Of a stretch of DNA of 64,000 bases, positions 43,304 through 43,321 are shown piece by piece. This stretch comes from Clostridia bacterium (GTDB taxonomy: Bacteria > Bacillota > Clostridia > TANB77 > CAG-508), in NCBI GenBank assembly GCA_017510825.1, contig JAFWMA010000004.1, positions 40,987 through 104,986 of the forward strand, given 5' to 3'. Below the pieces are notes generated by a model that did not search any database, was not told the origin of the DNA, and was given only the letters and a program-made list of their open reading frames with translations. The translations under genes were made by a program, and so were the position numbers. Every line of letters begins with the position of its first letter. The first letter of the stretch is position 1.

Positions 43304-43321
43304 GTGTGTGTGTGTGTGTGT
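43304..43321. repeat. (GT)9 dinucleotide microsatellite
   Basis: gtgtgtgtgtgtgtgtgt. On the minus strand it sits 11 nt upstream of a TTGACA -35-like hexamer of the P5 promoter region. Confidence 0.9.

Follow-up and report, generated by a model that had tools for sequence, protein, structure and literature searches.

A (GT)9 microsatellite directly upstream of the predicted promoter of a putative surface protein gene in an uncultured lineage of gut Clostridia

The microsatellite described here lies in a 64-kb stretch of Clostridia bacterium DNA (hereafter, the window, that is, the whole stretch of DNA that was analyzed), between two genes that, like all genes neighboring the tract, are encoded on the minus strand. 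The upstream gene (43499..44266) encodes a membrane acyltransferase of the TMEM164/TIGR02206 family, and the downstream gene, P5 (42195..43199), encodes a 334-aa protein with a GITLVALVVTIIVLLILAGV helix at its N-terminus, a long helical stalk and, at the C-terminus, a globular domain. The tract itself occupies positions 43304-43321 and reads (GT)9 on one strand and (AC)9 on the other. In the direction of P5 transcription, the stop codon of the TMEM164-family gene (43499) is followed by 177 nt, the (AC)9 tract, the 14-nt linker GGATATTTCAGCTA (43290..43303), the -35 hexamer TTGACA (43284..43289), an 18-nt spacer and the -10 hexamer TAAAAT (43260..43265); then, after about 40 nt, come the ribosome-binding site AGGGAGG (43210..43216) and the P5 ATG at 43199.

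The sequence at 43304-43321, GTGTGTGTGTGTGTGTGT, is a perfect 18-nt (GT)9, as described in an earlier sequence-only reading of this DNA, and TRF agrees (period 2, 9.0 copies, 100% matches). That reading gave the gene strand as (CA)9; a dinucleotide tract is indeed present there, but its exact form is GGCT-(AC)9-GGAT, which contains (CA)8. The G+C content of the window is 27.2% rather than the 25% initially quoted. No other dinucleotide tract in the 64-kb window exceeds six units: the second longest is (AT)6 (an (AT)6 lies at 5834-5845), and other runs of the GT/AC type reach three units at most. Another 21 kb from this genome (L104) contained no non-AT microsatellites, and (GT)9 is the sole non-AT microsatellite of at least six units in the combined 85 kb. 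Under a first-order Markov model, the window is expected to contain 3.5e-7 18-mers of the GT/AC type and 4.6e-4 nine-unit tracts of any dinucleotide, an excess of the tract over chance of about 10^6-fold. Because the tract is so far above the chance expectation, its length must have resulted from slippage expansion and not from base composition. The indel variability of simple sequence repeats (SSRs) climbs steeply with length (PMC3315296), and a perfect dinucleotide tract of nine units is long enough for slippage and hypermutability to be expected.

P5 has a strong-looking predicted promoter of the sigma-70 type. The arrangement TTGACA-N18-TAAAAT matches 11 of the 12 consensus positions and is the top promoter-like site within 42000-44400, a region that overall contains no more promoter-like sites than shuffled sequence does. 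In Pa, P5 and Pf, TTGACA precedes the ATG by 91, 90 and 93 nt, respectively, and is followed each time by a -10-like hexamer; because it is equally placed in Pa and Pf, two paralogs of P5, the prediction gains independent support. The 18-nt spacer, AAAATAAATAATTTCTTT, is non-repetitive. With the transcription start inferred near 43253, 7 nt past the -10 hexamer, the tract spans about -68 to -51 and is thus outside the -35/-10 spacer. The early description of the tract as lying directly upstream of the P5 promoter, next to a TTGACA -35-like hexamer (43289-43284), is borne out at the level of prediction, with the distances corrected: the gap between the tract and TTGACA is 14 nt rather than 11, and the gap between the tract and the ATG at 43199 is 104 nt rather than 110.

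Farther upstream, four A-tracts (43333..43366, minus strand) are centered at -111, -100, -89.5 and -81.5, that is, spaced by about 11, 10.5 and 8 bp, and TRF reports a period-11 repeat at 43341-43371; judging by the spacing of the A-tracts, this DNA probably is intrinsically curved. The paralogs carry A6-7 tracts that look like UP elements directly upstream of the -35 hexamer, whereas in P5 that place is taken by the 14-nt linker and the microsatellite, and the A-tracts are displaced outward to -81 and farther. No operator-like palindrome or direct repeat flanking the tract rose above AT-rich chance matches. No intrinsic terminator was detected between the TMEM164 gene and P5, and there was no Rfam match in the window or the P5 intergenic region, even at E<=1. 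In locus L109, from a related lineage, an 18-nt sequence, TGTAACAAAAATGTAATA, is directly repeated at 3760-3810, with about 21 nt from start to start, downstream of TMEM164 and upstream of a gene for a protein with Listeria-Bacteroides repeats (Flg_new); it bears a loose resemblance to the region of A-tracts that precedes (AC)9 in the window. The 17-nt core of this duplicated motif, GTAACAAAAATGTAATA, was considered as a shared operator and rejected, its matches in the window being not above chance.

The P5 protein is identical to MBR3324712.1 of NCBI, a hypothetical protein from a 'Clostridia bacterium' MAG, and has no match in the phage and plasmid collections searched. In its AlphaFold model, which is of mediocre confidence (pLDDT 65.8), residues 12-83 form a long helix that is accompanied by a globular domain; a Foldseek search of the PDB with this model returned nothing under E = 1. 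The N-terminus reads MNKSKKINLKETG|ITLVALVVTIIVLLILAGV, and P5 had been called pilin-like in the sequence-only reading. We compared it with the prepilin motif (G at -1, a hydrophobic helix and Glu at +5) using PF07963 and TIGR02532. The cleavage-like site of P5, G|ITLVALV, has Ala at +5, where the canonical residue is Glu. No Pfam or NCBIfam model reaches its threshold on P5: the scores against Pfam N_methyl (PF07963) are 13.4 bits for P5 and 15.7 bits for Pf, with a cut-off of 21.2, and no NCBIfam pilin model matches P5. A profile of the family matches type IV pilins in the PDB no more than weakly, along their N-terminal helices (E 0.005-0.03), and none of the 30 window ORFs scanned contains a domain of the PilB, PilC or PilD type. 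The likeness to pilins thus amounts to a resemblance, and on both the motif and the neighboring assembly genes P5 appears to fall outside the type IV pilins and pseudopilins. A reasonable description is that of a putative surface protein, either membrane-anchored or secreted.

P5 is one of six paralogs in the window, all on the minus strand (31119-36165, 42195-43199 and 49233-50507), four of which are in tandem. The N-terminal segment G[I/M]TLVAL[V/I]VT[I/V]I[V/I]LL[I/V]LAGV is nearly invariant among them, the C-terminal domains differ, and none of the six matches a Pfam or NCBIfam model. Beyond the five other window ORFs, almost exactly the same N-terminus is shared by hundreds of database proteins: 458 homologs were found at E<=1e-5, many of which align with just the N-terminal 20-25% or so of P5, and some of which carry C-terminal DUF6273, LRR_5 or FGE-sulfatase domains. 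In low-GC gut Clostridia, this looks like a large uncharacterized family of surface proteins anchored by a helix. The closest homologs of P5 elsewhere, P0002 (55%) and P0004 (43%), are both in unrelated genomic contexts, and no relative of P5 was found among the GTDB species representatives. No SSR was found at the five other paralogs of the window, and none upstream of P0002 and P0004; together with the further 21 kb of the genome, this indicates that SSR control is not a theme of the family.

P0002 seems to be truncated at the N-terminus in two independent assemblies (L011 and L012, about 3890-4000), the conserved signal/anchor segment being present upstream but out of frame, with an extra C in ...TTAGCTCGGAATT...; since its gene is surrounded by genes for Mob_Pre, TnpV, KilA-N and a resolvase, it apparently resides on a mobilizable element. 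In L104 (9540-14019), another member of the family, P0030, has a 129-aa GTP_EFTU fragment directly upstream and a LepA-like gene of full length about 900 nt downstream, an arrangement that suggests that lepA has undergone a partial duplication or an insertion.

The best matches to the Rho protein of the source organism are in Clostridium sp. CAG:508 and uncultured gut Clostridia MAGs, at 73-74% identity. P5 is missing from the lineages in which FtsX-TMEM164 is 90-93% identical, and other genes occupy its position there: the gene after TMEM164 is SIR2 in L008-L010, a homolog of window 51825-53108 in L106-L108, and a gene for an 820-aa Flg_new protein in L109. Homology with these lineages does not extend past the 3' end of TMEM164 (about 43518). 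The 3' side of this gene thus is a hot spot of gene replacement, with four alternatives including P5, which itself is a lineage-specific accessory gene. Because the related lineages lack P5, a deeper comparison of orthologous tracts is impossible. The product of 51825-53108, the homolog of which directly follows TMEM164 in L106-L108, has no Pfam match. The TMEM164 gene is also part of a broader arrangement, in which two adjoining ABC transporter modules of the MacB/FtsX type (36675-42028 and 44268-48456) each combine an ATPase with a permease, which is 1041 aa long in one case and 1181 aa in the other; a stand-alone NRPS-type condensation-domain protein (39981-41288) accompanies one module and the TMEM164-type acyltransferase the other, an unusual association.

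Variation in the length of the tract was assessed within the lineage itself, where the locus was found by look-ups of exact proteins, namely, P5, two variants from the cluster, TMEM164 and the downstream ABC ATPase. These look-ups yielded contigs from 14 other assemblies of the lineage, and 13 of the contigs include the tract; because ENA samples may be represented a second time among the Logan SRR runs, the number of independent samples is somewhat below 13. Record names with 'XIEF21' suggest that the samples are from ruminant guts, presumably, those of Xie et al. 2021. Twelve of these 13 contigs have nine units and are 100% identical over the 300-nt intergenic region. The remaining one, L023 (ERZ27256869), has ten units and otherwise shows no difference over its 981 nt; the contig ends 14 nt beyond the tract, and the (AC)10 allele may be an artefact of low coverage or PCR stutter. 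The evidence of variability at present is this single questionable allele. Searches of the JGI metagenome contigs, with the tract flanks separated by a variable gap and with P5 peptides as seeds, both came back empty, and thus the organism is not represented in those metagenomes.

Outside the tract, the assemblies differ by 0-4 substitutions per several kb at this locus, with 12 differences in 44.6 kb altogether (2.7e-4 per nt, after clusters of mismatches at contig ends were dropped), and the sampled population is nearly clonal. At this rate, 0.063 events are predicted in the pooled tract positions and one was seen; this suggests raised mutability of the tract, at P = 0.06, which is not significant. 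Because the population is nearly clonal, the count of 12 nine-unit tracts among 13 neither proves nor excludes hypermutability. The comparison of repeat number among strains, which the sequence-only reading had proposed as a check, gave a divided answer, with one ten-unit allele on one side, and on the other, the constancy of the remaining tracts and the location of the variant at a contig end.

Another contig, L007, comes from the same sample as the ten-unit allele and carries the body of P5 behind the promoter and 5' end of Pf. P5 and Pf are identical over 38 nt (43034-42997 and 50342-50305) within a surrounding 272 nt that is 79% identical, and several metagenome contigs break in this stretch, with one, L007, switching there from Pf to P5 (loci L007, L020, L021, L113 and L114). 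The switch site could reflect either an assembly chimera or genuine gene conversion between the paralogs. We considered L007 as a recombinant P5 locus that had acquired the Pf promoter and rejected this reading, given that the junction falls within the 38 identical nucleotides and that four other contigs break there; for the same reasons, a chimera is the simpler reading, and L007 probably is one and not evidence of promoter swapping.

Known promoter switches based on SSRs are of two kinds, in which the repeat either forms the spacer or lies upstream of the -35 hexamer, and the P5 tract has the geometry of the second kind. The TAAA tract of nadA in Neisseria meningitidis lies upstream of -35 and modulates transcription (Metruccio et al. 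2009, PMC2791445); its length alters the spacing between distal elements and the core promoter, which results in graded expression of the adhesin (PMC2791445). The P5 repeat shares the position upstream of -35 and outside the spacer. However, the nadA repeat is a tetranucleotide with mapped NadR operators and an IHF site on its flanks, whereas that of P5 is a dinucleotide for which no operator-like sequence was found, and its length variation is barely documented (12 versus 1). In Mycoplasma gallisepticum, the (GAA)n repeat of vlhA is located about 40 nt upstream of the transcription start, and 12 units correspond to the active state (PMC6258824). The similarities with P5 include a repeat upstream of a gene from a large surface family, conserved flanks and an organism from a low-GC Gram-positive lineage; unlike the P5 repeat, which is a nearly invariant dinucleotide found at one of the six family members, that of vlhA has a trinucleotide unit, accompanies all members of the family and shows wide variation between strains.

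The repeats of the first kind, including (TA)n of hifA/hifB in Haemophilus influenzae, poly-G of porA in N. meningitidis and poly-A of vlp in M. hyorhinis, are located in the spacer (PMC3899988). P5 resembles these systems in having a simple repeat beside the promoter of a putative surface gene, and the hif repeat also is a dinucleotide, of about 9-11 units; in contrast, the repeat there forms the -35/-10 spacer, so that one unit breaks or restores the geometry, whereas the P5 spacer is fixed at 18 nt. Because the tract is outside the spacer, a promoter switch of the hifA/B or porA type does not apply, and any effect of the tract must be exerted from about -68 to -51. In Helicobacter pylori, the T-tract of sabA reportedly acts as a 'rheostat', whereby changes in axial alignment produce multiple levels of promoter output (Aberg et al. 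2014), and Bacillus subtilis promoters are reported to depend on the rotational phase of upstream curved DNA (McAllister and Achberger 1989). P5 is similar in that a repeat or insertion near -35 would realign upstream A-rich DNA with the RNA polymerase, but those effects were measured, whereas curvature and phasing at P5 are deduced from the spacing of the A-tracts alone.

The interpretation that we favor, with a confidence somewhat short of even, is that the tract is a slippage-prone, promoter-distal spacer that tunes P5 transcription in the manner of nadA, vlhA and sabA. The tract is situated between the phased A-tracts (-111 to -81) and the core TTGACA-N18-TAAAAT, and slipped-strand mispairing would add or remove one unit, shifting the upstream DNA by 2 bp and rotating it by about 69 degrees around the helix relative to the RNA polymerase. 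Such a rotation could alter the contact of curved or UP-like DNA, or of a bound factor, with the polymerase, and P5 transcription would then go up or down in heritable, reversible steps, the effect of tract length being inferred. The outcome would be tuning by a 'rheostat' and not a clean on/off switch, with the nine-unit state dominant in the sampled animals. What inclines us, tentatively, to a distal spacer is the perfect and unique tract, the best promoter match of the region, the spacing shared with the paralogs, the displacement of the A-tracts by the repeat, the one ten-unit allele, the membership of P5 in a family with diverse C-terminal domains, its status as an accessory gene and the nadA and vlhA precedents. 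Weighing on the other side, and keeping our confidence below the halfway mark, are the nine units in 12 of 13 contigs, P = 0.06, the position outside the spacer and the lack of operator repeats; to the same effect, no second SSR was found at the paralogs, at the homologs or in 85 kb. The slipped-strand surface-gene switch originally envisaged survives insofar as a non-random tract does lie beside the promoter of a gene from a multi-copy family, but the geometry is not of the spacer type. Taken as a whole, the tract and its proximity to the promoter are real, and the spacer switch, SSR control across the family and identity of P5 as a pilin were not borne out. The most specific form of the tuning scheme, a GT/AC rheostat for one strain-specific, helix-anchored surface protein that works through rotational phasing of upstream curved DNA, is in our estimate unlikely.

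Almost as likely as a distal tuning spacer, and likewise held at less than even confidence, is a functionally neutral microsatellite that expanded in a tolerant intergenic spot and the length of which has no meaningful effect on P5. Recent common ancestry (0-4 substitutions per several kb) predicts equal lengths in 12 of 13 contigs, that is, the length looks constant because the sampled strains are nearly clonal. Neutrality also fits the position of the tract outside the spacer and the failure to find flanking operators; with no second SSR locus in the genome sampled, nothing points to a contingency-locus lifestyle, and with P5 and the intergenic region absent from related lineages, there is no conservation signal. 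However, long dinucleotide tracts containing G or C are extremely rare in the sampled genome, and the sole one lies 14 nt from the -35 hexamer of one of the six family genes, in the place of the UP-like A-tracts of the paralogs; furthermore, indels at -50 to -70 often affect promoters with upstream elements (PMC2791445; PMC6258824).

A fixed-length structural element, such as a flexible hinge, a Z-DNA supercoil sink or a factor-binding site, in which selection holds the nine units, appears quite improbable. In eukaryotes, CA/TG repeats upstream of genes are able to adopt the Z-form and change transcription (reviewed in PMC3899988), a precedent that would suit an alternating purine-pyrimidine tract with phased A-tracts on its upstream side and a strong promoter directly downstream, and the length of the tract is nearly invariant. 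Yet near-clonality accounts for this invariance without selection, and nothing similar is present at the promoter of any paralog. Moreover, adoption of the Z-form by 18 bp of d(TG/CA) requires higher negative supercoiling than with d(CG), and we know of no bacterial precedent for a promoter element of CA/TG Z-DNA. Less probable still is an RNA-level element, for example, an unstructured CA-rich site for protein binding or processing in read-through transcripts from the FtsX-TMEM164 operon: the FtsX, TMEM164 and P5 genes are all on the same strand, and the search for intrinsic terminators gave none between the last two, but the near-consensus promoter is downstream of the tract, and because of this, the main P5 mRNA should omit the tract, which also is 104 nt from the start codon and has no Rfam match even at E<=1.

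Simple-repeat contingency loci have been recorded mainly in a few host-adapted pathogens (Neisseria, Haemophilus, Helicobacter, Campylobacter and mycoplasmas), and gut Clostridia are known chiefly for invertible-DNA switches. To our knowledge, promoter SSR contingency loci have not been described in this group of low-GC gut Clostridia, and we are not aware of repeats of the GT/AC type in bacterial contingency loci. If the tract is functional, the known class of promoter-associated SSR contingency loci would gain a member in a new group, with an unusual repeat unit, and the distal-spacer reading, if true, would be the first description of SSR-based promoter tuning in an uncultured lineage of low-GC ruminant-gut Clostridia. 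A working tract would extend SSR-based tuning of expression to an uncultured ruminant commensal and would provide a convenient natural marker for the strain-level dynamics of a surface protein. If neutral, it is merely an unusually long bacterial microsatellite.

The rest of the window is rich in cell-surface functions. An ORF on the plus strand (6950-9688) encodes a 912-aa secreted-looking protein and contains, at 8824-9138, a tandem array with a 24/48-nt period (13 copies of 24 nt, 80-92% matches); the array consensus, GTAACTCCAACAGTAACACCAACA, would encode a Thr/Pro/Val-rich linker, and this is potentially a second length-variable repeat of the window, in frame. A cluster at 21090-25752 encodes a 691-aa protein with Listeria-Bacteroides repeats along with several small ORFs that have no Pfam matches, some of which, by eye, resemble SipW-type signal peptidases and TasA/camelysin-like proteins. 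A sortase gene is located at 61118-61894.
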